Shown here: in pieces, positions 43,951 to 59,112 of the stretch
Numbering within the stretch: position 1 is the stretch's first letter
How the letters are laid out: every line of letters starts with the position of its first letter
DNA from: Giardia intestinalis
Taxonomy: Eukaryota
Reading direction: 5' to 3' (one strand)
Assembly (NCBI GenBank): GCA_000002435.2
Contig: CM018793.1
DNA length: 64,000 nucleotides
Program-made: the position numbers and the translations under genes
Notes under the pieces: generated by a model
Seen by the model: the letters and a program-made list of their open reading frames with translations, nothing else
The model's database searches: none
What the model was told of the DNA's origin: nothing

Positions 43951-43952
43951 CG

Positions 43953-43999
43953 CGTATATCTAGGGATATAGGGGTATATAGTATAGGTATAGGGACAGG
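43953..43999 (+). repeat. Left boundary motif: degenerate TAGGG-type units (cgtatatcTAGGGataTAGGGGtatatagtaTAGGtaTAGGGacagg).
   Basis: Shares an 18-bp identical core (gggatataggggtatata) and about 45 bp of overall similarity with 63457..63507, in direct orientation. Confidence 0.6.
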
Positions 44000-44039
44000 A
44001 CTATAATAGTTTATGTCAATATGGCGCAATATACTAATA

Positions 44040-44130
44040 AATGTGAAATGAACACAAGTGTTTTGTGCAATGGTCACAAACGAAATGTGAACTTAGCACA
44101 AAATAAATGTGCACTGGTCACAGCGCCTCA
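44040..44130 (+). repeat. Iteron-like cluster of 4 AAATGTG[A/C]A units, including two longer copies (tgtgcaatggtcacaaacg and tgtgcactggtcacagcg), just inside the left boundary.
   Basis: The units repeat at about 20-45 bp spacing. Coordinates are approximate. Confidence 0.35.
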
Positions 44131-44622
44131 AATAAAATGCTGGCAGACGTCGTGGGCTTCTCAGAGATCCCCCCTTGCCCTGTTATGGATTCAAATGGTA
44201 AACTAACTCTTCCCAAGCCGCTCGAGCACTATGTCTCGGCGGCGAAACTCTCCCCCCGCAGGCGCCACAAAGGCCGTGAGCTCCTCCAGGAGGCGCTAAA
44301 CAAGGCCTGGGACTCCAAAAAGGAGCTCCAGGACCAAATGTTCAAGCTCTCCGTAAGGGCCGACCGCGACAAGCAAGAGATCGCCGAGCTCAAGGAAAAG
44401 CTTCGCCAGAGCGAGAAGCTGGAGTCTCTCCTTGCGGAAACGAGGCGCAACAACGACTATCTCTCGCAAGCGCTCACGAGAGCTCAGGAGAGGGAAACGG
44501 AGCTCCTAAAGGAACTGGAGGCCGCTAAACAGCAAAATGCGCGCCTTAACGACATGCGCGAGAGCCAGGCGCTTTATACACGCGACCTAGAGGCGGTTCT
44601 CAATAAGATAATGAGTAAATGA
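44107..44622 (+). CDS. Small coiled-coil protein (171 aa).
   Basis: ORF with an A-rich initiator (aaataaaATG) and heptad-like E/K/L-rich sequence. Confidence 0.45.
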   Translation: MCTGHSASNKMLADVVGFSEIPPCPVMDSNGKLTLPKPLEHYVSAAKLSPRRRHKGRELLQEALNKAWDSKKELQDQMFKLSVRADRDKQEIAELKEKLRQSEKLESLLAETRRNNDYLSQALTRAQERETELLKELEAAKQQNARLNDMRESQALYTRDLEAVLNKIMSK

Positions 44623-44671
44623 TCCTAAATAGGCCTATATAGCTTGAATAAAGGAAATCAGGGCCGTTTAC

Positions 44672-45361
44672 TTAAAAATAGAGCTTTTGGGCTTTTATTG
44701 CCACCTTGCGGCAAAGGGGGCACTCTATCGGCCTTCCGCGGATCCTTGCTTGCTCATCGAGGACATTAGCGCATTGTTCGCAGTAGGCGGCATGTCCACA
44801 GGGCATTAGAACGTGCGTGCGCTCCCTGTCTAGGCAGATCACGCACGCAGGCATGGTTACCTTATCGGGCAGACTGCGGCGAAGCATAGGGCGTATTCCG
44901 GCTGCTCGGCGCTTATAGCGCGCACAGGCCTTGCGGACGCGGCTATTTTCCTTCATCAACGCGCTTATCTCGCCTGTGAGCTCGTCGATGCGTTCCTCGG
45001 CTGCGTCGGCGACGTCTGCGGCCGCTCTGTAGTCGAGGATGGCCTCCTCCAGCTCCCTGTTTAGCTTTTCGCACTGTGCGTAGTATGTCTTAAGGCGAGC
45101 CTCGTAGTTCTTATGGAGGATCTCCTGGTCGAATTTTGACGCTTTTAGTGTCTCTCGCAGCCTCTTCAGCTTGAGGCCGCGGTGCGAGGACTGGGCGATG
45201 GCGTGGCGCAAAAGCTGCTTATCGGTCATATCAAGGTCCAGCTCGCTTACCGTGGTAGACGAGCTGGAGACCTCTTCCGATGGAGCGGGGCATGAGGGTC
45301 GCGCAGGAAGGCCTGCAATGCCAGGAAAACTCCCTATAACGTCAAAGACAGGCGTAATCAT
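44672..45361 (-). CDS. Coiled-coil protein with a C-terminal C3HC4 RING finger of IAP-like type (CVICLDRERTHVLMPCGHAAYCEQCA....CPLCR).
   Basis: RING Cys/His spacing at the extreme C-terminus matches the IAP/XIAP-type RING pattern. Confidence 0.65.
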   Translation of the reverse strand: MITPVFDVIGSFPGIAGLPARPSCPAPSEEVSSSSTTVSELDLDMTDKQLLRHAIAQSSHRGLKLKRLRETLKASKFDQEILHKNYEARLKTYYAQCEKLNRELEEAILDYRAAADVADAAEERIDELTGEISALMKENSRVRKACARYKRRAAGIRPMLRRSLPDKVTMPACVICLDRERTHVLMPCGHAAYCEQCANVLDEQARIRGRPIECPLCRKVAIKAQKLYF

Positions 45362-45512
45362 CTAGACGGGTCTTTTTCTCAATATACAATTTCACTTTAA
45401 AATGCTTTGCCGGCGTATATTATAGTGTAACATAGCAAAGTAGTGTAAATAAGAAAAATGGCGCCAAGGACCTCATAGCGCCTGGAGGTTAAAGAAGTGT
45501 AAATCAGCTCAT

Positions 45513-45999
45513 TTACTCATCGCTTTCCTCCTGGAAGTCCTTCGGTATGAAGCCGTGCTTGTAATAGAAGTCTTCCAGGGCGAGGCAGGCCTCCAGGTGG
45601 TCGCGGGCGAGGTCGTGGCGTTGCTCCGAGCTGTAGACGATCCAATTGCCAAGCATGTCGCGCCGCTTGAAGATCTGGATCGCCTTCAGCTGGAGGAGCC
45701 CGTCCGCCGCGCTGAGAACGTCAGGAAGGAGCCTAGAAAAGAAGTTGCTGCACCGTTCTACGTATAGATCGATGAGCATCAGGCGGTTCTTGTTGATGCG
45801 GGCGATCTGGGCCGCCCGGAGCCCGTTGCGGCGGCGGAACGAGCTTTGGCGTAAACCCTTCCGCGGCACCCGTTCGGTCCGGAGGCGGTGGAGCTGCTTC
45901 GTGTACGCGCTGATCAGCTCCCAGAGGCGCCCCTGGGACTCTGCCGCGTCGCACACCAGGATGGCGGGAATGTGGCCGAAAGCTGGTAGGAACATTTGA
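45513..45999 (-). CDS. Hypothetical protein of about 162 aa.
   Basis: The ORF-track ORF 45513..46187 overlaps the start of the 46068 gene. The internal Met at 45999 is preceded by an A-rich initiator on the minus strand (aaaaagccttcaaATG). Stop in AGTAAAT. Confidence 0.4.
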
Positions 46000-46067
46000 A
46001 GGCTTTTTCTTTCGATTTGAGAATCGAATTTAAAGTGTTTGCAACATATACGCCGCACAAAAAATAA

Positions 46068-48542
46068 ATGACGACGAGCTACATCCAGAGCGGCGGCGCA
46101 AGCCTCGAAATCGACCCGCTGACCGGCGAACTCACGTACGAGGACTTCCTCAACGCCATTGAGAAGGCCGAGCTGGAGCCTATCCAACCACCCAAGATCG
46201 ACCTGGGGAGCCCGTATTCCATATTCGGCATTCCCCTTGTCGATCAGATGTTCTCAGACGTCCTCGAGAACATCGACCTCTTCAAACAGGACATCGACAA
46301 GTTCATCGACTACCTCAAACGGAAGATCAAGCTGACGATCAACTGGACTGTGGCGCTTGCCGGCGTCACAACGATCTCGGCGCTCATCGGCGTGATCACC
46401 AGGGAAATCACCAACGCCATCTTCAACATAAAGCGAAAGCAAGAGTGGGAGGACCTCAACGACCCGGACGCTAAGGCAGAGATGATCCCCCAGGCAGACA
46501 TAGAGGCCAAGGAGGAGATCAGCGAAATGAGCGGGGAGGACATCGAACCGCCAAGTCTAGGAGAGATCGAGGAGCCCGTGCTCGATGAAGAAGGGAACGA
46601 GATGTTAAACCCCGACGGCACAACAATGATGACAACCCGCATCGTAGAACTGCCGCGGGACATCTCGGACCAGTACGACCCGATCCCCGAGCCGGTCGAT
46701 CTCTCCGAGGAGCCTCTTACGCCCGAGCTGGCCGAAGAGATAGAGGAGAACGAGGGCGACATCACCCTAGACGTAATCAATAAGCTTATGATGGAGTTCG
46801 ACCCGCAGGGGGTCACCCACGAGCAGAACAACGAGTGGCTCATCGATAGAGGGGTCTACATCCTGCATATCCCCCATCTGTTCCTCAAAAGGGAATGCCT
46901 CCCAGGCGGAATAAGAGCCGGAATCATAAATGGCGCCTGCGGCATGATTAACGGCGTCGTCATGCCTGCCGTGGCGGAACGCTATTCGCGCACGTACAGG
47001 CGGAGAGTTCACGTCTGTCCCTACGAGGAATCCAAAACGCATGCAGACAAGGAGCAATCCCCGGGCGGCAACCTCATGAACGTCCACTGCTGCATGTGCT
47101 TTGAAAAGAAGCGTGTTCTTAAGAAGGGAGATCCCTTATGGGCCGCCAATGTCTGCACCTGCATGCCGCCCTGCGAGTGTCCGTGCCACGAACGCTCGAC
47201 GAGACACATAAGGTATCTGAAGAAGACCTGCAGATCGTTTGCTCAAGAGGCTCCGTTGACTGGCTGGTGGGTTGGTTCTGATTGTATGGGAGACAGTCAT
47301 AAAACATATGAAAAAGACGATTATAACTGTCGATTCTACCCTTATATCTGCTATGAAAATGAAACGTCCGAACGGATAACAGACAAGCCAGAAAGTCGGT
47401 TTAATGTAATTCAGATCTGCCCGTTCTGCCAGATAATGTATGCCTACATCAATATCGTCGGAAAAGGCTACAAGCTCCACCGCTCCAACACAGAGGTCTA
47501 CATCTTCTTCACGAAGGGCGCCAACTCGACGCTGCTCCTCGGCGAGCCGGCGAAGTATTTGGTAACCGGCCCGGCGACCAACAAGACCTTCGACTATATC
47601 AATAAAAACGATAGCGCCTTCGACGACGCCATCTGGGGCCGTAAACCGTTATTCGAGTACCAGGGGCCTATCCAATGCAAGTGCTCCATTGGTCGCCCCA
47701 TATGCACGGCCGCCTTTAAGGGTAATGCCAACGAAGCACACACCAACCTCGTCACATATATAAAGGGCCACGCGCAGAAGATCAAGTACATCTACATGCC
47801 GGACTTCGAGGTGACGGGCGGCGATCCCTGGTGGTACAACGACCAGCACGACTACCAGTCGATCAAGGACCTCTGCATCTTCGACGGCATCCTCGAGCAC
47901 AAGGTCCCCGAGCACGTCTACCGCTTCTACGAGTACCGCCGGCTCCTCGACAAGACGTGGTTCCCGCGGCTCTACCAGGACATCTACAACCAGCTCACCA
48001 AGGACTATCCCGACATTCCCTCAGGCATGGACCATCCCACGGCCAAGAAGTGGAAGAACTGGAAGGCCTGGATGGCGATCGACAAGTTATTGAACGACCT
48101 CATCCCCATCCCGGAGATCTACCCGGAGCTCGCGGACAACCCGAATCCCCTCTTCGCGCGAAAGCCGGTGGGCTGGGAGCAGGCCAGTGAGTGGGGGACA
48201 GAGGCCGTGCCGTACTCGCTTCGCCTTCCCGAGGAACTCCAGCGCATTAAGGACTACCTCATACTGCTGGACAAATACTACCCGGGCTGGAGAGCGTTTC
48301 GCGATGAGCACGATCCGGGCTGGTGGAGCGACTTCTGGCGGCAGATCCCCGTCATCGACAAGGACGCGCGGACGACCATCTTCCTCTACAGCGACCTCCG
48401 GATCGACAGGTATAAATTCGAGATCACCGGGGAGCCCGAGTGGTGGCGCGACTTCTGGGGCCCCACGATCAAGGACAACCTCCCCGACCCCGAGAGACCC
48501 CGCTCGTACCAGGAGGTCCTCGAGGTCGTAAAGGATTACTAA
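46068..48542 (+). CDS. 824-aa predicted type-II or single-pass membrane protein with a large Cys-rich ectodomain.
   Basis: Hydrophobic segment WTVALAGVTTISALIGVIT about 90 aa from the N-terminus. This is followed by an acidic linker and a Cys-rich region (CMCFEKK...CTCMPPCECPCH...CPFCQ). High GC3. A-rich initiator aaaaataaATG. Confidence 0.6.
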   Translation: MTTSYIQSGGASLEIDPLTGELTYEDFLNAIEKAELEPIQPPKIDLGSPYSIFGIPLVDQMFSDVLENIDLFKQDIDKFIDYLKRKIKLTINWTVALAGVTTISALIGVITREITNAIFNIKRKQEWEDLNDPDAKAEMIPQADIEAKEEISEMSGEDIEPPSLGEIEEPVLDEEGNEMLNPDGTTMMTTRIVELPRDISDQYDPIPEPVDLSEEPLTPELAEEIEENEGDITLDVINKLMMEFDPQGVTHEQNNEWLIDRGVYILHIPHLFLKRECLPGGIRAGIINGACGMINGVVMPAVAERYSRTYRRRVHVCPYEESKTHADKEQSPGGNLMNVHCCMCFEKKRVLKKGDPLWAANVCTCMPPCECPCHERSTRHIRYLKKTCRSFAQEAPLTGWWVGSDCMGDSHKTYEKDDYNCRFYPYICYENETSERITDKPESRFNVIQICPFCQIMYAYINIVGKGYKLHRSNTEVYIFFTKGANSTLLLGEPAKYLVTGPATNKTFDYINKNDSAFDDAIWGRKPLFEYQGPIQCKCSIGRPICTAAFKGNANEAHTNLVTYIKGHAQKIKYIYMPDFEVTGGDPWWYNDQHDYQSIKDLCIFDGILEHKVPEHVYRFYEYRRLLDKTWFPRLYQDIYNQLTKDYPDIPSGMDHPTAKKWKNWKAWMAIDKLLNDLIPIPEIYPELADNPNPLFARKPVGWEQASEWGTEAVPYSLRLPEELQRIKDYLILLDKYYPGWRAFRDEHDPGWWSDFWRQIPVIDKDARTTIFLYSDLRIDRYKFEITGEPEWWRDFWGPTIKDNLPDPERPRSYQEVLEVVKDY

Positions 48543-48543
48543 T

Positions 48544-51500
48544 TCACAAGCTGTAGTTCTCGACCGAGCTCCTGGCCCAGTACCAGATCGCCACCCGCTG
48601 GCCGCCGCCAATCTTGCCGATGCTTTTATCATATGCAAAGCGTAGCGTGACGTTGATGTAGCTGTCATTGGAGTTGCCTTCGCGATAGTCGTTCCAGGCC
48701 ACGAAGACGCGGTCGTAGGACGTCACCCAGACGTCGTAGGGCACAATCGAGACGATGCAGTCGTTGCTCTTGCTGATGGCGTCGCTGGGGAGGCTGGACA
48801 TGGAGATCCGCATGAAGCCGTTGCCGTCCGTCGTCTGGCCGGGGATCCACTTCCGGACGAGGTACTGGTACTTCAGCTCTCGGCAGACATAGGTCAGCTT
48901 GTTTGACTGGGCGTTGAGCGTCGCGATGCTGTCCCGGTTCAGCCGGATCGAACTCTCAAAGCCGGAGACGGTCGACTCGAGCCTACTGAGCCTGCTCGAT
49001 GCGGAGCTCAGCGAGCCCTGGAGGTTGCTCACCGTGACTTTGAGGGAGGCGATCTGGTCCCGGTTCTGCCCAACGGACCTCTTGAGAGTCGTTACTTCGT
49101 CTGTCCATATGGCGATGGTATCTGCGTTGTTCTTGATCCTGGTCTCGTTAGCCCTAATTTTGCCTTCGCAATTGGCCACCCTTGTTGTAAGAGCTGATAG
49201 AGCGGTTTCTTGCGTCCTAGTCGTGTCCCAGAGCCCCCGTATGTTGCTCTCGGCGGCGTTGACCCGCGTCTCGAGGGCCGCATAGTCGGTTGTATTGCTC
49301 TTGAGGTCGTTTATGCTAGTCTTCATCTCAGAAATGTCGCTCTCGTTAGTCGCTATGCGCTCTTCATAACCAGCGAGTCGGCCAGACAGAGTGTTGTAAC
49401 GGTCCGATATCTCTGTAATAGTCACATTGAGTCTCTCGATGGTCGCCCGGTCCTCCTCCCTCTCCCTCTCGAGCGCTGCGACCCGGGCCGACAGACCTGA
49501 CACGTCCTGAATAACCGCAGAATCGTCCTTTGAACCCTCCTTGGACTCTAACGCATCGAGGCGCTCGGTAAGCCTTCTGATCAGCTCGTCTTGCGCCACA
49601 ATGCGCTCGGTGAGGAGCCTCCTCTGCTCGGCCGACCGCTCCTGCTCCTCTTCGATCTGGGCTTCCAAAGCATCGTTGCGGGCAGAGGTCAAACTGCTGA
49701 TGGCCTTAACCTGGTACTGCAGCTCCGCGACGAGCTCCCGCAGGTAGTTGTAGGCGCCCTCGAGCTCGGTCCGGATCCCGCTCATGTCTATGATGCCGCC
49801 GACCGGGTCTGTGAACGAGATCCCGTTCCGCTCGAAGAATTGGACAACGACTGTCATCAGGATCTCGATGCGGTTCCGGAAGTCCATGATGTCATTCTGG
49901 TTCTCGGTGAGTCTCTCGATCCGCTTGGCGTGGACCTTCGCCTCCTCCTGCAGCGCTTCGATGGCTACTTGGTCCTCTCCGGCGATGCTCTGAAGCACCT
50001 TGATGTGATTCTTCGCCCGGGCAGCCTCCAGATGCACGAGGGACACGTCCCGGTTGATGTGCGAGAACTCGTTCCAGATAAACTCGAAGCGGTAGAAGAG
50101 GTCGTCGGTCAGGAACTTGTAGATCCTCTTAAACTTGTAATCGTGCTCGTCGAGCCGGTTCTTCGCCTGGATCGCATAGGCAAGGCCTGTGGAGGCGACG
50201 GTCAGGATAGCCGCGTCCAAGGCATAGCCTACGGCCATGTTGATCACGTTGAGCTTCGATCCGATGCCGCCTGTGTTTCCGCCCTTGTTGATTTTGTCCT
50301 GGAGTTTCTTGTAGTCGTTGTCATCGGCCAAAAGCTTCGCCTTGAGGTACTTGACGGCCGCCTGGAGTTTCGTTATCTCGAGGTCGAGCTTCTTGTTGTT
50401 CCGCTCCAAATTCTGGATCTTGGTCTCGTGCTTCAGGGCCCGCTTGCCCAGATAACGCGTCTGGTGCGTGACACGGCCCTGCGAGAGCTTCTTGAGGTTC
50501 TTGATCTTCAGATAGCTGCCCCCGATCTTGTAATTGCCGCCGATGTGCTTGCGAAGTCCGTTGTCCTCGTCTCCGTCTTCGTCCTGGCCCTGCAGCTGGC
50601 GGTAGAGCCACATCGTCTGCTGGTTGACCGTGGCCGCCATGAAATCTGCCCGGGACACGCGGCCGTAGGGAGAAAGCTTCTGGTTGTTCCTGCCAGCCAG
50701 AGAGCCCCCGACCATCTCATAGAGGTACTGGATCTGCTGGAAGAGGGGCTGCTTGCGGAAGTCATCCTGGGAGATGGCGTTCCCTATGCCGATCTTGCCC
50801 TCCAATGCGTCAGGGATGAGATCGTTATCCCTGGTTTTCTTCTTCTTGAGCTTCCGAGGCTTCTTGGGCTTCTGCTCCTTCTTCTTCTTCTTGAGCAGCG
50901 CCTTCTGGTCCGCCATCGGTAAGAGCTCCTCTCGGAAGGCGTAGTTCCCCATCATCATCCACTGGAGGGCGACGATCTTCTGCACGATCGTGAGCCCCCG
51001 CATGTACTCGGACTTGTTCGTCGTGTCGCGCATGTACTCCTCGGGCTGGAAGTTGTTGTTAAAGCCGACGATCGGGGCCGCCTTCTTCATCGCCTTCGTG
51101 AGCTTCCCGCCGTTGAGGGCGATGTTGAAGATGCCCTTCGGCGTATTCTTGAAGCCGATGATCTCCTCCATGAACTTGACAAGAAATACCAGACACGGGC
51201 CCTTCAACGGAGACATCCCATCTAACATGTTTCCGTTGTAGTCTTTGATCTCGTAGTTGTGGGCATTGCAGTAGTACCGGAGAGCACTGGCCTTGTCTTT
51301 TTCGGTCATGAGCTGCGTCGCGCAATGGACGGTCTTCGGACCAAAATATCCCTGAAGACGATGAGTCAGATTTATGTTCAGATTGCTTCCCAAGAGAGCC
51401 CTCCGTTGATCGTCTCTCAAAGCATTACGCTCGCAGAACTCCTTGAGCACATTGAAGTAATACTCTGACGCAAAGCTAAGCTGATCGACGACCTTCTGAA

Positions 51501-51561
51501 GGCTCTCCTTCGTCACGAACTTCCCATCCAACTGCTCCGTGCGGATGATGAGGTTGTTCAT
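48544..51561 (-). CDS. 1005-aa protein with a globular N-terminal domain, a Lys-rich NLS-like stretch (KKKKKEQKPKKPRKLKKKK), a long central coiled-coil and a C-terminal globular domain.
   Basis: Uninterrupted ORF with strong heptad periodicity in the middle third. Confidence 0.6.
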   Translation of the reverse strand: MNNLIIRTEQLDGKFVTKESLQKVVDQLSFASEYYFNVLKEFCERNALRDDQRRALLGSNLNINLTHRLQGYFGPKTVHCATQLMTEKDKASALRYYCNAHNYEIKDYNGNMLDGMSPLKGPCLVFLVKFMEEIIGFKNTPKGIFNIALNGGKLTKAMKKAAPIVGFNNNFQPEEYMRDTTNKSEYMRGLTIVQKIVALQWMMMGNYAFREELLPMADQKALLKKKKKEQKPKKPRKLKKKKTRDNDLIPDALEGKIGIGNAISQDDFRKQPLFQQIQYLYEMVGGSLAGRNNQKLSPYGRVSRADFMAATVNQQTMWLYRQLQGQDEDGDEDNGLRKHIGGNYKIGGSYLKIKNLKKLSQGRVTHQTRYLGKRALKHETKIQNLERNNKKLDLEITKLQAAVKYLKAKLLADDNDYKKLQDKINKGGNTGGIGSKLNVINMAVGYALDAAILTVASTGLAYAIQAKNRLDEHDYKFKRIYKFLTDDLFYRFEFIWNEFSHINRDVSLVHLEAARAKNHIKVLQSIAGEDQVAIEALQEEAKVHAKRIERLTENQNDIMDFRNRIEILMTVVVQFFERNGISFTDPVGGIIDMSGIRTELEGAYNYLRELVAELQYQVKAISSLTSARNDALEAQIEEEQERSAEQRRLLTERIVAQDELIRRLTERLDALESKEGSKDDSAVIQDVSGLSARVAALEREREEDRATIERLNVTITEISDRYNTLSGRLAGYEERIATNESDISEMKTSINDLKSNTTDYAALETRVNAAESNIRGLWDTTRTQETALSALTTRVANCEGKIRANETRIKNNADTIAIWTDEVTTLKRSVGQNRDQIASLKVTVSNLQGSLSSASSRLSRLESTVSGFESSIRLNRDSIATLNAQSNKLTYVCRELKYQYLVRKWIPGQTTDGNGFMRISMSSLPSDAISKSNDCIVSIVPYDVWVTSYDRVFVAWNDYREGNSNDSYINVTLRFAYDKSIGKIGGGQRVAIWYWARSSVENYSL

Positions 51562-51622
51562 CTATTTTAATTTCGCAACCATTTAGAATCAGAATCTCGT
51601 TTCGGAAAATAAAATGGTGTAA

Positions 51623-52150
51623 ATGGCTACTCTCAAAGACCTTCTGAACACCAATCCAATCGGCATGAGCGAGGAGAACTACGCGCAGCTGCTGCGCTCC
51701 CTCGAGACCCTCAACTACGGCCAGCTGCGCCAGTACGTGCTGGCCCGCCTCAAGCCCCTCGTCGACAACGTCCGCAAGCATCTCCAGGAGGACCCTGTCG
51801 GCTCGATCGACCAGGTCCTCGACTTCCAGGACGCCTTCTGCACCAAGGAGCTGATCCAGACCGTCCGCTGGAACCTCGCGCAGTTCCAGGTGAACGCGAA
51901 GAACCCCCGCAAGGCGCCGGCCGTGCGCAGCAAGGAGGCGACGGAGCTCTCGTACGCGACGGACTACAGCTTCCGGCGCATCGTCTACCCGATCGTCGCA
52001 GACCTCGCGAAGATCCTCTACCTCCGCGCCGAGGAGGCGAACGTCCGGAACCCGAACAGCCTCGTGCGCTACATCCCGCTCCTTATCATGTTCAACCAGC
52101 AGAACGCAATCGGCTACCCGCCCCGCGTCGCCTTCCTCGTGACGCCAGTA
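51623..52150 (+). CDS. Hypothetical protein of about 175 aa with an uncertain 3' end.
   Basis: The ORF continues without a stop through the hairpin and repeat region to 52594, encoding a low-complexity P/R/G-rich tail. That tail is probably non-coding, so the true end is unresolved. Alternatives are a frameshift, a pseudogene or an assembly issue. Confidence 0.35.
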
Positions 52151-52172
52151 GTATATATCCTTGTGGTGCCCA

Positions 52173-52220
52173 CTTTCGTTTTTTTGGGCCTGCACGGGGC
52201 TGGGCCCAAAAAAACGAAAG
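52173..52220. repeat. Perfect 18-bp-stem hairpin (ctttcgtttttttgggcc / ggcccaaaaaaacgaaag) with a 12-nt loop.
   Basis: Exact reverse-complement arms were read from the sequence. The T7/A7 tracts give a terminator- or origin-like appearance. Confidence 0.8.
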
Positions 52221-52467
52221 CGTCCCCCACAAGTGCGTCTGCGTGTGCCGGTCCGCCCACTAGGCTCCCACACGCTGGCGCTCGTTTACCTACTTTTCAA
52301 CAGAATAAAAAACCTGTAAATTTTCAAAAAAAATCGCGGCCTCCCCCCGGAACCGCCCAGCGTGGTGCCGTGCACGCCGGGAGGAGACCGCGTTGTCCTT
52401 GGATGTGTGTGATGCGTTCGCGCCCGGTTCAGCTGCCGGCCAGCCTGGTCTGCTCCCTGCCCCCGGG

Positions 52468-52546
52468 CCCGCACGACACCGAAGTGCGACATACAGACAG
52501 CCCGAAAGCAGAAAGCAGGCCAGCGTTATTTTTTTTTTCTGGGAGG
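52468..52546 (+). repeat. Repeat module A copy 2. It is followed at about 52570..52608 by module B (gaattgattctgat...), whose other copy is at about 42691..42714.
   Basis: Similarity by eye to 43064..43123 and 42691..42714. Both module-B copies sit about 30 bp upstream of an 'aaataaaa..ATG' ORF start (52628 and 42756). Confidence 0.5.
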
Positions 52547-52627
52547 CGGCAGTCAGGAAGTGCAAACCATTCTGACGAATTGATTCTGATCTGATTAATT
52601 GATTCAGGGCGGGGAGGAAAATAAAAT

Positions 52628-53074
52628 ATGACGGATGAGCATTTGGGTGGCGGCGACGTTCAACCTGATAGGGACGATGGCGACGCTGGTGTGTCTGGGG
52701 ATAACGGCGTCGTCGTGCAAGAAGACAGCGTCGATCATGCAGGAGATCCTGGACAGACAGAAGGCCCGCCAACAGCAGAGCCAGCCACAGTACCAGCAGG
52801 CGCCGACTCCCCCGCTGTACCAGACGAGCCAATGGATGAGTCAGAGCTACTAGCAGAGCTCGCGTCTGATAAGATTACCATGCCGATGATGGTTATCACT
52901 ATGGGAGGAAGGTTCTTCGACTGCAAGGACGCTGAGCTCACTGTCACGATGAAGGTAAACGACGAGACGATGGAAGGATGCTATGTCTTGATTGGAGATA
53001 CTGTTCAGGAGGGGGAGGATGGAATAAAGTTAATGGGGTTGGTGTTCAAGCGCAAGGACGTGCCGGCAGAGTGA
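52628..53074 (+). CDS. 148-aa protein: acidic disordered N-terminal half plus a small C-terminal domain.
   Basis: ORF with A-rich initiator (aaaataaaatATG). Stop in AGTGAAT. Confidence 0.5.
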   Translation: MTDEHLGGGDVQPDRDDGDAGVSGDNGVVVQEDSVDHAGDPGQTEGPPTAEPATVPAGADSPAVPDEPMDESELLAELASDKITMPMMVITMGGRFFDCKDAELTVTMKVNDETMEGCYVLIGDTVQEGEDGIKLMGLVFKRKDVPAE

Positions 53075-53076
53075 AT

Positions 53077-54543
53077 TCACTTGTAGAAGAGCTGGAAGAT
53101 GGGGGCCCAGTCGCCCTCTATCTTGGCAGAGAAGGGCCTTGCGTCGACAGAGCCGTCGGGGTAGGTGACTATGTGGTCTGCGCGGAAGTGTAACTTGTTG
53201 GTCGGCTTTTCCAGCTCGTGCCACGCCCAGAACAGCGGGTTGATGACTTGGTAGCGGTCGTGGATGCGGCGGGCAGAGACGATGGGATATCTCTCGTGGT
53301 ACTCTTTGCAGTAGAGGTTGATGCGGCTGTCCTTGTTATACCAGACATACGGCGGAATCTTTATGCGCGTTGTAGGAGAGATCGCCTCATAGAGCTTGAT
53401 AAGATCCGTCTTCCTGATGTGCCAGGCAGTGATAAAGTCTGGCGTTATCATTAGCATGGTTACCGTGGTCATCAGAACGAGATCGTCTCCATCTAACCAG
53501 GCCGCGATATAGGGACCGCTTGGGTTAGGCCCTATTTCTTTCAAGAAGTAGTTGTTGATGTATTTGAAGATGTTGACCATGGCGGTCTTAGTGATGACTG
53601 TTCCGCGGAGCGACAGGAAGTACGGGTCCTTGTGGGGGTAGAAGCGTCTGACCTTCTTGCTTGTTACCTCGATATATGCGTCTTTGCCATATTCGAAGGT
53701 GAAGGTCGGCTCAAGGAAGAAAAAGTCAGGGACGCTCAGCTTGGCGACGGGCGAGTGCAGGAGGATGGCATGAGGCTTTTCGAAACGAAAAAACCCCTGC
53801 TTCTTTTCGTGTTCTGCAGACTCCGTGATGAAGAGTTCGAGATAGACGGGAGCGAGGGTGAATGGGCGGTTGTTTTGGTCAAGGATCTCTATGTCGATGA
53901 TTCGGCCCTCATTGATGCGGTGGTTAACGGCGATGTGGGGGTTGATGAGGGAGAAGTTGTTTGTGATGTGCATAACGCCAATGCAGGCCGGCATTGTCAT
54001 GTTGGAGTCAGACGTGCCGCAGACGTTCTTGCAGATGATCTGGAGATACTTGAGGGTGACGGGAGGATAGGGGATGTCTGAGAGGAGGATGCTCCGTTCG
54101 CCTTGCGGAAGGTTTCGGGAGAATAGTTGCTTGGTGGTTCCGAAGCCAAGTGCCCAGGCAGCCGACGGAGAGAGGTTGAGATTTATGAAGTGGTTCTCTG
54201 CTGTGATTGCTTGTGTTAGTATGAAACGAACAAAGCCATCCTCGGTAATGTTTATTTCGACGTTAGCAGATATGCTGTGTGAGATCAGGTCAGCAAGGTT
54301 CTTAGCGACTCCGTCGAATTCGAATAACGTCTGGTTGGCGGTTACGTCGGTAATGTTGAAGGCGCCGATGCTGTCGAATATAGAAAGCGGGGAGTATGCG
54401 CTAACGAGACTCATATAGTGGCCTGTCGGATAGTGAGAGAGGATTTCGCGGATCTTGTTGCTGTATATCGCATGGTTTACGAGACCCTTTCCTATATTTT
54501 TAATTGTTATAACACCTGTCTGCTTTGTCTCGAGTCTCAGCAT
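53077..54543 (-). CDS. 488-aa hypothetical protein, beta-rich by composition. It could be a structural or virion protein.
   Basis: Uninterrupted ORF. It shares a 12-bp A/T-only divergent promoter (tattttttaatt) with the ATPase gene. Confidence 0.55.
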   Translation of the reverse strand: MLRLETKQTGVITIKNIGKGLVNHAIYSNKIREILSHYPTGHYMSLVSAYSPLSIFDSIGAFNITDVTANQTLFEFDGVAKNLADLISHSISANVEINITEDGFVRFILTQAITAENHFINLNLSPSAAWALGFGTTKQLFSRNLPQGERSILLSDIPYPPVTLKYLQIICKNVCGTSDSNMTMPACIGVMHITNNFSLINPHIAVNHRINEGRIIDIEILDQNNRPFTLAPVYLELFITESAEHEKKQGFFRFEKPHAILLHSPVAKLSVPDFFFLEPTFTFEYGKDAYIEVTSKKVRRFYPHKDPYFLSLRGTVITKTAMVNIFKYINNYFLKEIGPNPSGPYIAAWLDGDDLVLMTTVTMLMITPDFITAWHIRKTDLIKLYEAISPTTRIKIPPYVWYNKDSRINLYCKEYHERYPIVSARRIHDRYQVINPLFWAWHELEKPTNKLHFRADHIVTYPDGSVDARPFSAKIEGDWAPIFQLFYK

Positions 54544-54555
54544 TATTTTTTAATT

Positions 54556-55500
54556 ATGCCGCTCGATCTCTCGCTCAAGACTGCGTCTACCAAGGACGCG
54601 CTCGAGTTCCGGGAGAAGCGCTTCCCGGTCTCGAACAACTGCTTCATCCCGATCGTGGGTGTGACGGGCTCTGGGAAGACGACGATCATCATCAACCTCT
54701 TCCGTCTTCTCAATGAGATCTACCGCTACAGCCACATCATCTATGTCGCCGCGAACTACCGCCAGGACGCGACGCTCAGGGCAGCGAACCTCACCCAGGT
54801 AGTTCTCGAGGACTACGTGGAGTTCGAGCAGGAGCGCGAGCATACGAAGCACGTCTACACGGCGAGCACCGATCTGCTGGACGTGGCCATCATGAAGATC
54901 TACGAGCTCCAGGACCTCCACGCGAAGGCCGAGGAGCTCCGGGAGCAGAGGAGGCAGATAGCGAGGGCGATCAAGATCGCGAAGGACCAGCAGCCAGAGC
55001 TCCTCGAGGACCTTGTTGCCCGCTACATCACAATCACCGAGGAGATCGACTCCATAGCGCCGACCAGCGACGGCACGCGTCCGAAGGTCCTCCTCGCCAT
55101 CGACGATAACTCGGGTGCCAAGGCCTTCAAGGTCAACTCTGAGAACAACCTTGTGTACCGCCTCATCAGGGACAGGAGACACCACAACACCTCTGTCCTC
55201 GCCTGCATCCACAACCTCAAGGCCTTCCACGCGCCCTTCCGCATGCATGCGACGGAGTTCATCTTCACGGCAGGTCTCAACAGCCAGGCGCTCAAGGATG
55301 TTTACGAGGACCTGGGGAACATCTTCCCGATCATCAACGAGAAGGCCCAGGACGGCACGAAGGCGTGCGACCTCTTCTGCGGGCTCTACGACAAGGTGAC
55401 GGGCGTCTACCCGAACGACGAGAGCCGCCGCTACTACTTCCTCACCGTCTTCCGTAACGCAAGGGAGCTCAGGGAGAACTTCGACACTGTCCTCAAGTAA
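54556..55500 (+). CDS. Poxvirus A32-like (FtsK/HerA-superfamily) genome-packaging ATPase, with an inserted coiled-coil segment of about 100 aa.
   Basis: The motif order and sequences match the NCLDV/Polinton A32 family. Walker A is FIPIVGVTGSGKTTIIINLF (vaccinia A32: FRMVLTGGSGSGKTIYLLSLF). Then IIYVAANY (A32: IFLFTPVY). Walker B is KVLLAIDDNSG (A32: RFLLIFDDVGD). The family-typical RRHHNTSVLACIHNL matches A32's GRHLNTSIILLCQTY. The true ATG at 54556 is preceded by 'ttttttaattATG'. Confidence 0.75.
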   Translation: MPLDLSLKTASTKDALEFREKRFPVSNNCFIPIVGVTGSGKTTIIINLFRLLNEIYRYSHIIYVAANYRQDATLRAANLTQVVLEDYVEFEQEREHTKHVYTASTDLLDVAIMKIYELQDLHAKAEELREQRRQIARAIKIAKDQQPELLEDLVARYITITEEIDSIAPTSDGTRPKVLLAIDDNSGAKAFKVNSENNLVYRLIRDRRHHNTSVLACIHNLKAFHAPFRMHATEFIFTAGLNSQALKDVYEDLGNIFPIINEKAQDGTKACDLFCGLYDKVTGVYPNDESRRYYFLTVFRNARELRENFDTVLK

Positions 55501-55506
55501 ATAAAA

Positions 55507-55896
55507 ATGCGTGCTCACACCCAGGCGGACGACTACGGTCGCGTCTACACTGTCTCACACCTCCCCTCCTGCGCTGTCCTGCCGACGGGGTCTCCTCCGT
55601 ATGCGCCTCCCCGCGTCGTGCAGGCCTTCAAGGATCCCCTTGCCGGCACGCAGGTTCCCTTCAACTCGAAGAACGACCCGTCCGTGCACCGCATCGTGAA
55701 GGCCCGCCGCTTCGCCTCCCAGTCGAACCTCATCCCCCTCGACTGCAATAGCAACGCAAGGCACATCCAGGTCCCCATGCCCTCCAAGACCCTGACCCAT
55801 GCGATGGCGAAGCGCATCGACCCGTCACTCGCAGACACAAAGAGGCGCACCGCAAAGATGGAAGAGGCCAAGATGCGCATGCGCACGAAGAAGTGA
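55507..55896 (+). CDS. 129-aa basic protein, a possible DNA-binding or core protein.
   Basis: ORF starting directly after the ATPase stop (AGTAAATaaaaATG). Arg/Lys-rich. Stop in AGTGAAC. Confidence 0.4.
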   Translation: MRAHTQADDYGRVYTVSHLPSCAVLPTGSPPYAPPRVVQAFKDPLAGTQVPFNSKNDPSVHRIVKARRFASQSNLIPLDCNSNARHIQVPMPSKTLTHAMAKRIDPSLADTKRRTAKMEEAKMRMRTKK

Positions 55897-55916
55897 ACTC
55901 CTAGGAAAAAAAAATA

Positions 55917-56462
55917 ATGACAGCCAACGTTGACGTTCAGGCGATCGTCGCGGCGGTCCTCGAGAAGCTCAAGGAGCCTGCAGCTCCGAAGAGCGTCTAT
56001 GTGCCCCCGCAGGCCAAGCAGGCGAAGACGCGCATGAAGGAGGTCCCGATCACCGCCCGAGAGGACCCTGACATCGACCCCTACAAGGAGCTCCCCGAGA
56101 TCAACCGCGAGACCCACGAGTACATCTATTGCAAGAATGGGAGGTGGAGGGCCGTCCCCAAGCAGACCCCCGAGCAGATCAAGGAGCGCACGGAGAAGAT
56201 GCTCGAGTCGCGCCTCAGGAAGCGCGCCGAGGCCACCAAGAGGCTCGAGGAGAAGCTCGCCCAGATAAGGGCCGAGAAGATGGAGGAGAGCATGGTCGAG
56301 ACCGTGGCGCCCCCCAAGAGCGAGGAGGAGCACGAGTCGGGCGACGAGGGAGACCCGGAGCTCTCGAAGATCATCGCCGACCACCTCGCCGAGAAGCAGC
56401 GCAAGGAGAGCCATGCAGCAAACGTGTCAAGCGTGTTCGGCGTCTCGGTCACGCATAAGTGA
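55917..56462 (+). CDS. 181-aa highly charged K/E-rich protein.
   Basis: ORF with initiator aaaaaaaaataATG. Probably largely helical or disordered. Confidence 0.45.
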   Translation: MTANVDVQAIVAAVLEKLKEPAAPKSVYVPPQAKQAKTRMKEVPITAREDPDIDPYKELPEINRETHEYIYCKNGRWRAVPKQTPEQIKERTEKMLESRLRKRAEATKRLEEKLAQIRAEKMEESMVETVAPPKSEEEHESGDEGDPELSKIIADHLAEKQRKESHAANVSSVFGVSVTHK

Positions 56463-56478
56463 ATGAAAAAAAAAAATC

Positions 56479-59097
56479 ATGGCGATCGCCATTAACCCCG
56501 ATGTCCGCGAGCTGGACTTCAGCGACAACGTCAAGGTCTCGAAGTTCATGCAGGACTTCTCGGACTTCAGGGCGAAGAAGTGGATCACCTACAGGCCAGT
56601 GAACGCGCCCAGCGAGAGCGAGCCCTTCTTCGGGGGGACGAGACAGTTCATTATCAACATGGGCACGGGTCACATCCTCGACACAATGTATTCTGGGCTC
56701 TGGTTTGAACTTTACTTCCAGAATAATAGTGATGTGGTGTTGTGGCCTATACAGGCTTCTCTTCCTCGCACTTCTTCAGCTTGGATCGAGTCGGTGACGT
56801 TCCAGCATTCGAAGGTGGCAGCCCACATAGATGAACGCCTCTGCGATTACAACGCTGTCAGCACCATCTTTATTCCCGCGAAAGACATCCTCAGTATGAG
56901 GCAGACCTTTTTCACTACGGCAAATCAGCAGTTTGCAGACAATAATATGTTCAATGATGCCGTAGCCGATGATATATATGGCAAGCTTATGCCTGTAGGC
57001 TCGTTGACTACTTCTCGCATATCCCAACAAACCTTTTCTTTCTTCATCCCGCTTCGTTATTTATCAACCATCTTCAATTCAGGCAGATACTTCTTCCCAA
57101 GCCTGCTTCGCGGTAATGGTGAGATGACTCTATCTATTCGCTCTGTTGCTGCGTCTCTTTCAGAGGTGTTTGGTGGTTCTCGCAGTTCTATGGCCATTTA
57201 TATGAATCCTAATTTAAATGATTACCTTTGGTCAACTGCCGCTTCTGACAAAAAGATTAACTGGGATGTTTGTATGTATAATATGAAGTTAGTTACGCTC
57301 TGTCTCGATAACGCTTTTCTTACCAAAGAGTACAACGCCTTCATTGCCAGCGGCCGCAAATTTATTCGCTCTTTCAAAGCCTATAACTACCAGTTCTACC
57401 AGGTCAAGCAGGGTTATAATCGAATTGAGATAGCGAACACCCATCAGTCGATATCGCACATTGTTCTTGCGTTCCAGGTGCCGTATTCTGTACGCGTCGA
57501 TGGTCGAGCTATTTCGATGATGGATAATCAGTCATTTGGTATTCAGAAAACAACAGCGGGCACAACAAGCCAAACGATTAATGCCAAGAACCAGGGCGCA
57601 TTTGTTCCGACACGAGCAAGACCTTCTATGACAGGTCACGCCGGTAATAATTATCAGCCAGCGCCAGACAACCCGTACATTTCAGCATCAAGTCCAAACC
57701 CTCCTTCTGGTACTCGCGCATTTGGTAGAAAGGCGTTTGATCTTGGTACTAGTATAATGTGCAAGATATGGGATAGTGCTAAAAATCTGAACTGGTCATT
57801 TTTAGCACAACCGACTCTTGCCCTTGCGGCCAGTGGCCTTCCTAAGTCAGTACAACCTCTCGTAACAGCAACAGCCAATATGTTAGTTCAGAGTTCCTTG
57901 CAAAGCGCCACTAGAGCTGGAAGTGTTAAAAGACCTGCGCCGAGAACGTCCCAAGAGAATGATTTGTTAAAGCTTCAAAGAAATAATGCCCAAAGCCTAG
58001 CTAGAGGTTTTATGGATCCAAAGAATCGTGATGTTATAGGGACGTTTATTGACGAATTTAACAAATCGACAGGCGGTACTCTTGGAATAACCGAATTTAA
58101 TGCTATAGCACATCAGTTCCTAACTATGAATAATGCCAAAAGTAATTTAACACAAAAACAAAAGGATGTTTTTACAGATCTTATGAATATGAAGAAACTT
58201 GATCCTGTCTCAATTAACTTGATAGCTTATTATGCAACAGATGATGAGAGTGGTCCGTCAGCCATCACCAATGACCAAGTGAAGAATTATCTTTTGAAAC
58301 ACAACATAGATGAAGCTGACATAGATGAGGTGACCGATATTATAGCACGTCATAATTTAGAAACGGCAGGGGTATCTGTCTCCCAGGGAAGACTTGCTTT
58401 AAACGGTTTGGAAATAGATACCAATACCCAGAAAGTCGTTGCCGAGACCATGGATCGAATATTCGGAAGCGATGATACGTTAAAGACTGCCTTTACTGAG
58501 AGTCAGAAGACGTACTTGGCAAAAATTCTCGCAGAGCTGACTGACCAGAACCACTTGGATCATCACAAGTTCTTTACGCAAATGTTCCCCGCCGAGCCAA
58601 AGCAACTCTTTGATCTCGGCATGCACGTTATCGAGAACCTTCAGGTGTACCGCGGGACCGGTAACGGTGAGACGGTCTTTTCAGAACCAATTAACGGAGA
58701 CATGTTCTACCACATAAGTAGGGAGGCAATGGGCGATTCTGCTGAGAACCATCCATTTTTCAGTCTTGAGAATTTCAACAAGGACATGGCAGTAATTGTA
58801 ATTAGTCTCAACACTTTCATGCGCGACGCTCACCACGAGTTCTGGGACGGGTTCAGCACGAACCGCGTTGCTGATCGTCTCTATGTGGAGTTCAATAATG
58901 AGGAGTTTGTCATTCCGGATCTGTCTAAGATTCAACCTTGGTTTGATGATATCGGTTACCAGGATAATTGTATCGGCCTAGACTGCAAGGTCTTCACGAT
59001 CTACGACAACATCTACTTCATCGACCGCGACAACAACCTGAACGTGTCCGACACGCTCCTGCCCCTCCAGGAGGGCCGCATTCCTGGGTCTGACTGA
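56479..59097 (+). CDS. 872-aa candidate double-jelly-roll major capsid protein (large, with insertions), or another virion structural protein.
   Basis: The N-terminal segment W.TYRPVN......FFGG.RQFIINMG.GHILD.MY..L.FEL follows the pattern of the first jelly-roll B-C strands of NCLDV/Polinton major capsid proteins (TNF...FG..V...I.R.GDL......E..L). This is a pattern-level resemblance only. Confidence 0.35.
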   Translation: MAIAINPDVRELDFSDNVKVSKFMQDFSDFRAKKWITYRPVNAPSESEPFFGGTRQFIINMGTGHILDTMYSGLWFELYFQNNSDVVLWPIQASLPRTSSAWIESVTFQHSKVAAHIDERLCDYNAVSTIFIPAKDILSMRQTFFTTANQQFADNNMFNDAVADDIYGKLMPVGSLTTSRISQQTFSFFIPLRYLSTIFNSGRYFFPSLLRGNGEMTLSIRSVAASLSEVFGGSRSSMAIYMNPNLNDYLWSTAASDKKINWDVCMYNMKLVTLCLDNAFLTKEYNAFIASGRKFIRSFKAYNYQFYQVKQGYNRIEIANTHQSISHIVLAFQVPYSVRVDGRAISMMDNQSFGIQKTTAGTTSQTINAKNQGAFVPTRARPSMTGHAGNNYQPAPDNPYISASSPNPPSGTRAFGRKAFDLGTSIMCKIWDSAKNLNWSFLAQPTLALAASGLPKSVQPLVTATANMLVQSSLQSATRAGSVKRPAPRTSQENDLLKLQRNNAQSLARGFMDPKNRDVIGTFIDEFNKSTGGTLGITEFNAIAHQFLTMNNAKSNLTQKQKDVFTDLMNMKKLDPVSINLIAYYATDDESGPSAITNDQVKNYLLKHNIDEADIDEVTDIIARHNLETAGVSVSQGRLALNGLEIDTNTQKVVAETMDRIFGSDDTLKTAFTESQKTYLAKILAELTDQNHLDHHKFFTQMFPAEPKQLFDLGMHVIENLQVYRGTGNGETVFSEPINGDMFYHISREAMGDSAENHPFFSLENFNKDMAVIVISLNTFMRDAHHEFWDGFSTNRVADRLYVEFNNEEFVIPDLSKIQPWFDDIGYQDNCIGLDCKVFTIYDNIYFIDRDNNLNVSDTLLPLQEGRIPGSD

Positions 59098-59112
59098 GTG
59101 AATGGAATAAAA

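Follow-up and report, generated by a model that had tools for sequence, protein, structure and literature searches.

A predicted A32-like packaging ATPase in a probable Polinton/Maverick-like element of Giardia intestinalis

A stretch of 64,000 nucleotides from Giardia intestinalis (contig CM018793.1), referred to here as the window, was analysed, and we focused on the open reading frame (ORF) at 54556-55500 on the plus strand. This ORF, GL50803_0025071, encodes a 314-aa ATPase of the A32-like packaging type within the FtsK-HerA superfamily. The assignment was supported because the sequence, profile and fold levels agreed. The gene was located in a compact, chromosomally integrated gene block of 19.5 kb, a size of the Polinton/Maverick type (about 15-20 kb). 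These results suggested that the ORF is probably a functional packaging ATPase of an endogenous Polinton/Maverick-like double-stranded DNA (dsDNA) virus element. The element that carries the ATPase is Polinton/Maverick-like, and is neither a nucleocytoplasmic large DNA virus (NCLDV) nor a virophage.

The ORF was intact, with 314 codons from the ATG at 54556 to the TAA at 55498-55500, and the extent given by an earlier sequence-only reading was confirmed. It was an exact match to KAE8305692.1 / XP_001707471.2 of G. intestinalis WB (ATCC 50803), which is annotated as a 'hypothetical protein'. An older annotation of the gene used an upstream ATG and gave 342 aa. The start at 54556 was backed by the orthologues, which begin with MALDL or MSLDL (MxLDL). 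A 322-aa ORF overlapping it on the minus strand (54550-55518) was judged an artefact because the substitutions between isolates of different assemblages fitted the plus frame, with a ratio of non-synonymous to synonymous divergence (dN/dS) of 0.11.

The motifs on which the sequence-only reading had relied were all present and were invariant across 21 homologues aligned down to 18% identity. Walker A (P-loop) was GVTGSGKTT at aa 35-43 (54658-54684), and Walker B was LLAIDD at aa 179-184 (55090-55107). RRHHNTS at aa 207-213 (55174-55194) corresponded to the family-typical GRHxxxS block. Within it, RHHNTS occupied aa 208-213 (55177-55194) and was followed by VLACIH, in which H219 ends the sensor-1 strand; most family members have Q there. 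FRMHATE at aa 228-234 (55237-55257) lined up with the family-wide 'R.N' block, such as GRANITH in vaccinia virus, and its R229 is a candidate arginine finger. At the level of single residues, G40, K41, D71, D184, R208 and H209 were invariant in the 21-sequence alignment, and D183 and R229 were nearly so.

Profile searches were consistent with the motifs. Pox_A32 (PF04665) was the top Pfam match of the ATPase, with an E-value of 8.9e-6 and 25.8 bits against a cut-off of 22.8. The generic P-loop families trailed it, all below their own cut-offs; they included KAP, AAA+ and ABC, the families that the sequence-only reading had named as top matches that would speak against it. In the native full-length protein the Pox_A32 alignment was limited to aa 31-90. 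When aa 105-167 were removed, the score was 34.8 bits, and 142 residues aligned nearly gap-free over 137 profile positions (16-152), through Walker B and the RRH block. Eleven alternative deletions all scored below this one. Like the PF04665 family, the Giardia ATPase has Walker A (GxxGxGK[ST]) and then Walker B (hhhhDD), in that order, together with the (G/R)RHxxxS block, a polar residue at the end of sensor 1 and a downstream arginine.

When 1.84 billion cluster representatives were searched exhaustively with hmmsearch, 36 relatives of the Giardia ATPase were obtained, and the remote ones surfaced only in this search. Word-indexed protein searches with the single sequence, a 9-sequence profile and a 21-sequence profile gave only Giardia-type sequences and one distant match. 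Pox_A32 was matched by 16 of the 21 aligned homologues (best E-value 1.7e-20) and Adeno_IVa2 by one. A PDB sequence search with the ATPase gave only non-significant matches to ABC-transporter P-loops, and an IMG/VR scan and a phage tblastn search with it gave no matches.

The predicted fold was compared with solved and predicted structures. AlphaFold with 20 remote homologues added gave a predicted local distance difference test score (pLDDT) of 84 and a predicted template modelling score (pTM) of 0.83. With a shallow alignment the overall pLDDT was 50, and only a helical hairpin was confident. The model showed a P-loop fold of the FtsK-HerA type, and its nearest structures were viral packaging ATPases. 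Its best solved neighbours were the B204 packaging NTPase of Sulfolobus turreted icosahedral virus 2 (STIV2), HerA, VirB4 and FtsK, and B204 chains made up 15 of the 16 best Foldseek matches in PDB. Among the predicted viral structures of BFVD there were 76 matches at E<1e-3. Named entries made up about three quarters of the top 50, and nearly all of them were A32-like packaging ATPases or other NCLDV P-loop NTPases. The matches included African swine fever virus B354L, mimivirus, medusavirus, the haloarchaeal virus PH1 and a corticovirus. In addition, adenovirus IVa2, mavirus, an adintovirus, Sputnik V3 and the entomopoxvirus OPG160 were found. With Pox_A32 above its cut-off and viral packaging ATPases as the best fold neighbours, the A32/FtsK-HerA family membership proposed from the letters was upheld.

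The sequence-only reading had also described a coiled-coil insertion of about 100 aa between Walker A and Walker B as not typical of A32 homologues. The insertion was real and helical, but it was smaller than proposed. The model and the deletion scan defined a 63-aa antiparallel helical hairpin at aa 105-167 (54868-55056), with helices at aa 105-145 and 147-167; the charged string KAEELREQRRQIARAIKIAKDQQPELLEDLVARY was located at aa 124-157. The hairpin sat between a beta-strand at aa 100-103 and the Walker B strand at aa 178-183, and its pLDDT was 90-98 in both AlphaFold runs. The Pox_A32 deletion scan set the extra length at about 63-66 aa. Hydrophobic residues occupied 9 of 11 and 6 of 6 heptad a/d positions in the hairpin, 37% of its residues were charged, and its net charge was -5. 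A weak Pfam match to the coiled-coil arm of seryl-tRNA synthetase (E-value 0.0013, below the cut-off) probably reflects merely common coiled-coil character.

The insertion was extra with respect to the Pox_A32 profile, but long spacers were common in the clade of the ATPase itself. The distance from the Walker A lysine to Walker B was 143 aa in the Giardia ATPase and 71-187 aa among relatives, with at least 108 aa in 13 of 20. In the closest relatives, including two multi-copy families of Hexamita inflata, it was 130-187 aa. This meant that the hairpin is a feature of the clade and is not unique to the Giardia gene. This clade is associated with diplomonads, and a helical hairpin ahead of the Walker B strand is common to its members. 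Between assemblages of G. intestinalis, dN/dS was 0.08 for the hairpin and 0.115 for the core, and the constraint on the two was similar. Between lineages with 60% identity, the non-synonymous divergence of the hairpin was 0.53 compared to 0.21 for the rest of the protein, and the hairpin length was kept. Because the arm is acidic, fast-evolving and conserved in length, it may be a surface on which structural partners dock and with which they co-evolve.

The gene block that contains the ATPase, unit 1, extended over about 19.5 kb (43949-63491). It was delimited by a direct repeat of about 40 nt at its borders and by the homology of its ORFs to three related contigs (L001, L011 and L002). The repeat (CGTATAT..GGGATATAGGGGTATATA..) was found at 43949-43985 and 63455-63491 and marks the left edge of each unit. 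For its 18-nt core, 0.01 matches would be expected by chance. Its role may be that of an attachment site, of a terminal sequence or of a promoter. Several ORFs of unit 1 were relevant to the viral reading. A 323-aa PolB-N-like ORF was located at 51623-52594 on the plus strand. By tblastn and phmmer, its first ~150 aa (51713-52153) matched the N-terminus of the protein-primed family B DNA polymerase (PolB) of L001 and L011. An unannotated 488-aa orphan ORF (53077-54543, minus strand) diverges from the ATPase gene and was its partner in L001, L011 and L002 also; its position and size make it a candidate capsid protein. A second capsid candidate was the 872-aa orphan ORF GL50803_0016690 (56479-59097, plus strand), for which no family match was obtained. 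A 342-aa ORF resembling the retroviral-type integrase core (rve) was located 3.6 kb downstream of the ATPase (59113-60141, plus strand), with a sub-threshold Pfam match. Pfam scans of all non-nested ATG-start ORFs of at least 120 aa in 41-64 kb, and of most large upstream ORFs, gave none of the NCLDV core genes (D5-like primase-helicase, VLTF3, non-protein-primed PolB, NCLDV-type major capsid protein). The Pfam scans of window ORFs gave no virophage markers either.

A contig from the Logan collection (L012) was identical to window positions 52602-64000 and continued for 7.5 kb further into a second unit. This second unit (63455-64000 of the window; 10800-18935 of L012) was colinear with window positions 43900-52600 at 67-77% nucleotide identity. 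Its ORFs were a RING ORF, ORFs of 162, 175, 809 and 958 aa (the last on the minus strand) and a PolB-N-like ORF, and L012 ends in this unit. Since L012 continues into a colinear second unit, the locus contains two or more diverged units arranged head to tail. The metagenomic contigs L001 and L011 (19-20 kb) encoded an ATPase with 60% identity and a complete 1148-aa protein-primed PolB. The contigs of this size are recorded as ERZ27287779 k141_64424 and ERZ27273579 contig_3874. ORFs of unit 1 were homologous to those of L001 and L011 by tblastn and phmmer, with a rearranged gene order. A more distant ATPase with 21% identity (P0061) was encoded on a 15.1-kb contig with a protein-primed PolB and terminal inverted repeats made of 66-nt repeats. 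This contig is a bona fide Polinton-like genome. Terminal inverted repeats were present in the distant relative L008. Conserved single-copy orthologues in free-living relatives, which the sequence-only reading had named as evidence of a host gene, were not what we observed in the free-living diplomonad Hexamita inflata, where the ATPase homologues were multi-copy.

The sequences flanking the ATPase gene resembled host expression signals. The start codons of the ATPase and the divergent 488-aa ORF were separated by the 12-nt A+T-rich spacer TATTTTTTAATT (54544-54555), which we take to resemble a Giardia-type initiator. A spacing of 11-20 nt between the two start codons recurred in L002 and L001. 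AGTAAAT overlapped the ATPase stop codon (55496-55502, plus strand) and presumably fits the Giardia polyadenylation consensus AGTRAAY.

Selection on the module was estimated by comparing the WB copy (assemblage A) with the assemblage-B-like copy L002 for eight genes. All eight were intact in both copies, with dN/dS of 0.11-0.56. The ATPase gave the lowest value, 0.11, at 91% aa identity and a synonymous divergence of 0.6. It was followed by the 129-aa ORF (0.18; 78% identity), the 872-aa ORF (0.21; 56%) and the rve-like ORF (0.26; 90%). The values were 0.38 for the 488-aa ORF (47% identity), 0.41 for both the 181-aa ORF (61%) and the 773-aa ORF (42%), and 0.56 for the 276-aa ORF (68%). These results showed purifying selection on all genes of the module between assemblages of Giardia. 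Synonymous divergence ranged from 0.23 to 1.9 among the eight genes, and such unevenness is typical of viral modules. The ATPase gene was found in isolates WB, DHA2, P15 and GS. The mosaic divergence together with the intact genes argued against a dead fossil, and could not distinguish host exaptation from an element that is active or can be mobilised.

Several results weighed against a working viral element. The polymerase domain was not found in the window copy, where only the N-terminal ~150 residues of PolB were matched, and no terminal inverted repeats were found in 40-64 kb of the window. With its polymerase domain lost and no terminal inverted repeats found, the window unit is unlikely to be autonomous. 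The 488-aa and 872-aa ORFs gave no Pfam, PHROG or PDB sequence match, in searches with single sequences and with a profile. Pfam gave no match to an adenain-like protease in the unit ORFs or in the ORFs of L001, L011 and L008. Pfam rve was matched in four orthologues of the rve-like ORF with E-values of 6.6e-5 to 1.8e-3, all below the 32.6-bit cut-off. Its catalytic aspartates D15 and D71 could be placed, and the third catalytic residue could not. In addition, purifying selection fits host exaptation equally well as an active virus. An exapted host gene cluster would consist of tandem units that are immobile relics, with morphogenetic genes co-opted by Giardia and no longer serving a virus. 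Possible uses would be a defence or particle-forming system like integrated mavirus, or a gene-transfer-agent-like system. We consider this explanation unlikely. A window copy without polymerase domain and terminal inverted repeats would fit it, and the intact ORFs with dN/dS of 0.11-0.56 between assemblages, the presence of the ATPase gene in all four isolates and the flanking signals that resemble those of the host agree with it. However, the synonymous divergence was uneven among neighbours (0.23-1.9), which looks like viral mosaicism and not like vertical descent of a host locus. The putative structural genes were only 42-56% identical between assemblages, compared to 90% for the ATPase and the rve-like ORF. 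Contigs of about 19-20 kb with full PolB were assembled repeatedly from different samples. Orthology of the insertion site between assemblages was not demonstrable, as the contigs break at the unit borders.

The lost polymerase, the gene order rearranged with respect to L001 and L011 and the missing terminal inverted repeats could also be read as decay, with the ORF as a remnant of an ancient integration that has no present function. This is very improbable and was disfavoured by the data. The ATPase ORF was intact with dN/dS of 0.11 at a synonymous divergence of 0.6, its catalytic motifs were all invariant, and the seven neighbouring ORFs were intact in both assemblages. Least credible of all was an unrelated P-loop NTPase (KAP, AAA+, ABC, STAND or superfamily 2 helicase-like) that resembles A32 via its Walker motifs alone. 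The restriction of the full-length Pfam alignment to aa 31-90 and the weak matches of many generic P-loop families were compatible with it. However, it was contradicted by the scores of these generic families, which were all below the cut-offs, and by the hairpin-less Pox_A32 alignment, which spanned Walker B and the RRH block. It was also contradicted by the fold searches, in which the matches were of the FtsK-HerA clade and viral packaging ATPases ranked first, and by relatives that matched Pox_A32 with E-values down to 1.7e-20. A packaging ATPase of an endogenous Polinton/Maverick-like element was thus the explanation that we preferred. A further reading is that the locus is a tandem array of polymerase-less Polinton-like units, maintained by purifying selection, that can still build DNA-filled particles. 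Their morphogenetic module would comprise the ATPase, with its clade-specific docking hairpin, and fast-evolving orphan structural proteins, and the units would be either mobilised in trans by a PolB-bearing partner or exapted by the parasite for defence or DNA transfer. We regard this reading as tentative and rather doubtful.

Under the preferred reading as a packaging ATPase, a mechanism can be proposed by analogy with STIV2 B204, PRD1 P9 and vaccinia A32. The subunits would form a ring at one vertex of the capsid, and ATP hydrolysis would pump linear dsDNA into the preformed capsid. The predicted catalytic parts would be K41 of Walker A, D183/D184 of Walker B, RRH at aa 207-209 and the candidate arginine finger R229. 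In the model, the acidic hairpin (aa 105-167) would lengthen the connection into the Walker B strand. It may most likely serve as a docking arm to fast-evolving vertex or capsid partners, and not as a DNA-binding element.

The remaining ORFs of unit 1 were arranged as follows. A 171-aa ORF was the first, followed by a C3HC4 RING-finger ORF (44672-45361, minus strand; Pfam E-value 1.4e-12), a 160-aa ORF on the minus strand, an 824-aa ORF (46068-48542) and a 1005-aa coiled-coil ORF (48544-51561, minus strand). A 148-aa ORF lay between the PolB-N-like and 488-aa ORFs, and the 129-aa and 181-aa ORFs lay between the ATPase and the 872-aa ORF. Downstream of the rve-like ORF were the 773-aa ORF (60138-62459) and the 276-aa ORF (62585-63415, minus strand). 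The 276-aa ORF was considered as a protease and rejected, as it had no protease motif or family. The 872-aa ORF was conserved with its ~505-aa orthologue solely at aa 258-336 and 691-870. Compared to the L001/L011 orthologues (~505 aa and 326 aa), the 872-aa and 773-aa ORFs had lineage-specific middle inserts of about 350-450 aa. In the case of the rve-like ORF, the comparison with the HIV integrase core by hhalign was not significant. A manual reading of the four orthologues, with an uncertain alignment, placed alanine at the expected catalytic glutamate in all of them, and the encoded integrase may be inactive. L001 encoded a deoxynucleoside/thymidylate kinase (13635-14450, minus strand). 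This kinase and the RING ORF of unit 1 are host-like accessory genes inside the elements.

Additional features were observed at the borders of the units and in the related contigs. Between the two units there was a G+C-rich low-complexity tract with GGCGGG/GGCAGG-type repeats (63500-63800). A tRNA-like string near 63850 was unconfirmed by ARAGORN and Rfam, and tRNA-linked integration was rejected. Left of 43.9 kb only compositional noise was present, and a third unit there was rejected. In L002, an insert of about 1.6 kb (1453-3063) had inverted repeats of about 50-100 nt at its ends and encoded a 254-aa PDDEXK_2 protein; it looks like a small transposon. The matching site in the window, 52160-52233, held only a palindrome with 31-nt arms. 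The long-read contig L011 also had a palindrome, seemingly perfect, with 31-nt arms and a 4-nt loop at its very end (17939-18004). It may represent a hairpin terminus, or it may have arisen in the assembly. The left flank of unit 1 carried Giardia host genes, namely those for an ankyrin 21.1 protein, an XPD-type helicase and a DUF4485 protein, and a 6,966-aa orphan ORF. The latter (125-21025, plus strand) was uninterrupted and encodes a giant orphan protein of Giardia, neither half of which matched Pfam at E<=1e-3.

Giardia is an important parasite of humans. The mobile elements known from it are a few LINE-like (long interspersed nuclear element) retrotransposons, and its best-known virus is a double-stranded RNA virus. 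A conserved and apparently selected DNA-virus morphogenetic module in assemblages A, B and E, together with PolB-bearing metagenomic relatives, points to an unrecognised diplomonad Polinton-like virus lineage. If the units do build particles, they would represent the first DNA virus system with capsid formation that is known from a diplomonad. The wider locus, with tandem polymerase-less units under selection and putative orphan structural genes, was more interesting than the insertion in the ATPase. GL50803_0025071, GL50803_0016690, GL50803_0025075 and the unannotated 488-aa ORF are offered for tests of particle formation. The A32 ATPase family and its meaning were already known, and Polinton-type ATPase and PolB genes of Giardia had been included in supplementary trees of published work. 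What the present result adds is therefore annotation and a lead, and not a conceptual surprise. In the literature searched, GL50803_0025071 was not described, and the identifier of a neighbouring gene appeared only as a marker for typing by polymerase chain reaction (PCR). Giardia has also reportedly been implicated as a host of CRESS (circular single-stranded DNA) viruses (PMC7493932).

The placement of the ATPase among known systems was examined with the references of Yutin et al. 2015 (PMC4642659), which include Polinton/Maverick ATPases of Trichomonas vaginalis and Entamoeba invadens and Polinton-like virus (PLV) ATPases of Guillardia theta element 3 and PLV-INO1. By phmmer, Guillardia element 3 (Guil3) and PLV-INO1 were the best matches among the 56 named references. 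The Giardia ATPase and 11 relatives were added to the fixed, trimmed alignment of these 56 references, and a neighbour-joining tree with 100 bootstraps was calculated. The 12 Giardia, Hexamita and metagenomic sequences formed one clade in 86 of 100 bootstraps; the method is crude, the alignment was fixed and the added sequences had been picked as matches of the Giardia profile. In the full tree this clade was far from the NCLDV and virophage clades (Sputnik, Organic Lake virophage (OLV), Yellowstone Lake virophages (YSLV) and mavirus). It adjoined the protist Polintons, but this sister position was unsupported, with a bootstrap of only 16/100. Of the placements that the sequence-only reading had left open, NCLDV and virophages were disfavoured.

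The published trees contain other Polinton-type genes of the same host. Supplementary file 4 of PMC4642659 lists a Giardia isolate GS ATPase (GI 253746051) in the packaging-ATPase tree, beside the Trichomonas and Entamoeba Polintons, and a G. intestinalis protein-primed PolB (GI 559178763). GI 253746051 belongs to the same host species and superfamily as GL50803_0025071 and is a different, very divergent gene, and BLASTP gave no correct alignment of the two. GI 253746051 was absent from the window and from all fetched related loci, and GI 559178763 was not in the window. Because both lie outside the window, Giardia hosts at least two distinct Polinton-type lineages.

Compared to known systems, the ATPases of protist Polintons and Polinton-like viruses are of the same family as the Giardia ATPase. 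As in Polintons, a protein-primed PolB accompanied relatives of the Giardia ATPase, and these were also linked to a gene with sub-threshold rve matches. In contrast to Polintons, the Giardia window copy was without terminal inverted repeats, and no protease or recognisable capsid gene was found in it. The STIV2 / STIV B204 NTPase (PDB 4KFR, 4R2H) represents a minimal core of 204 aa with 10-13% identity to the Giardia ATPase. Beyond this core, the Giardia ATPase has about 28 extra residues at the N-terminus, the hairpin and a more extended helical region at the C-terminus. The vaccinia A32 protein (OPG160) and the Pox_A32 family have the same block order as the Giardia ATPase, namely Walker A, Walker B, GRHxNTS...(Q/H) and R.N. 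The Giardia segment DRRHHNTSVLACIH...FRMHATEF aligned without gaps to FGRHLNTSIILLCQ...GRANITHF of vaccinia A32, and the RRHHNTS block matched FGRHLNTSIILLCQ column for column. However, the Giardia ATPase adds the 63-aa helical hairpin ahead of the Walker B strand, and it has H219 in place of the sensor-1 Q and H231 in place of the asparagine of R.N. Its gene is located in a 19.5-kb integrated element and not in a poxvirus.

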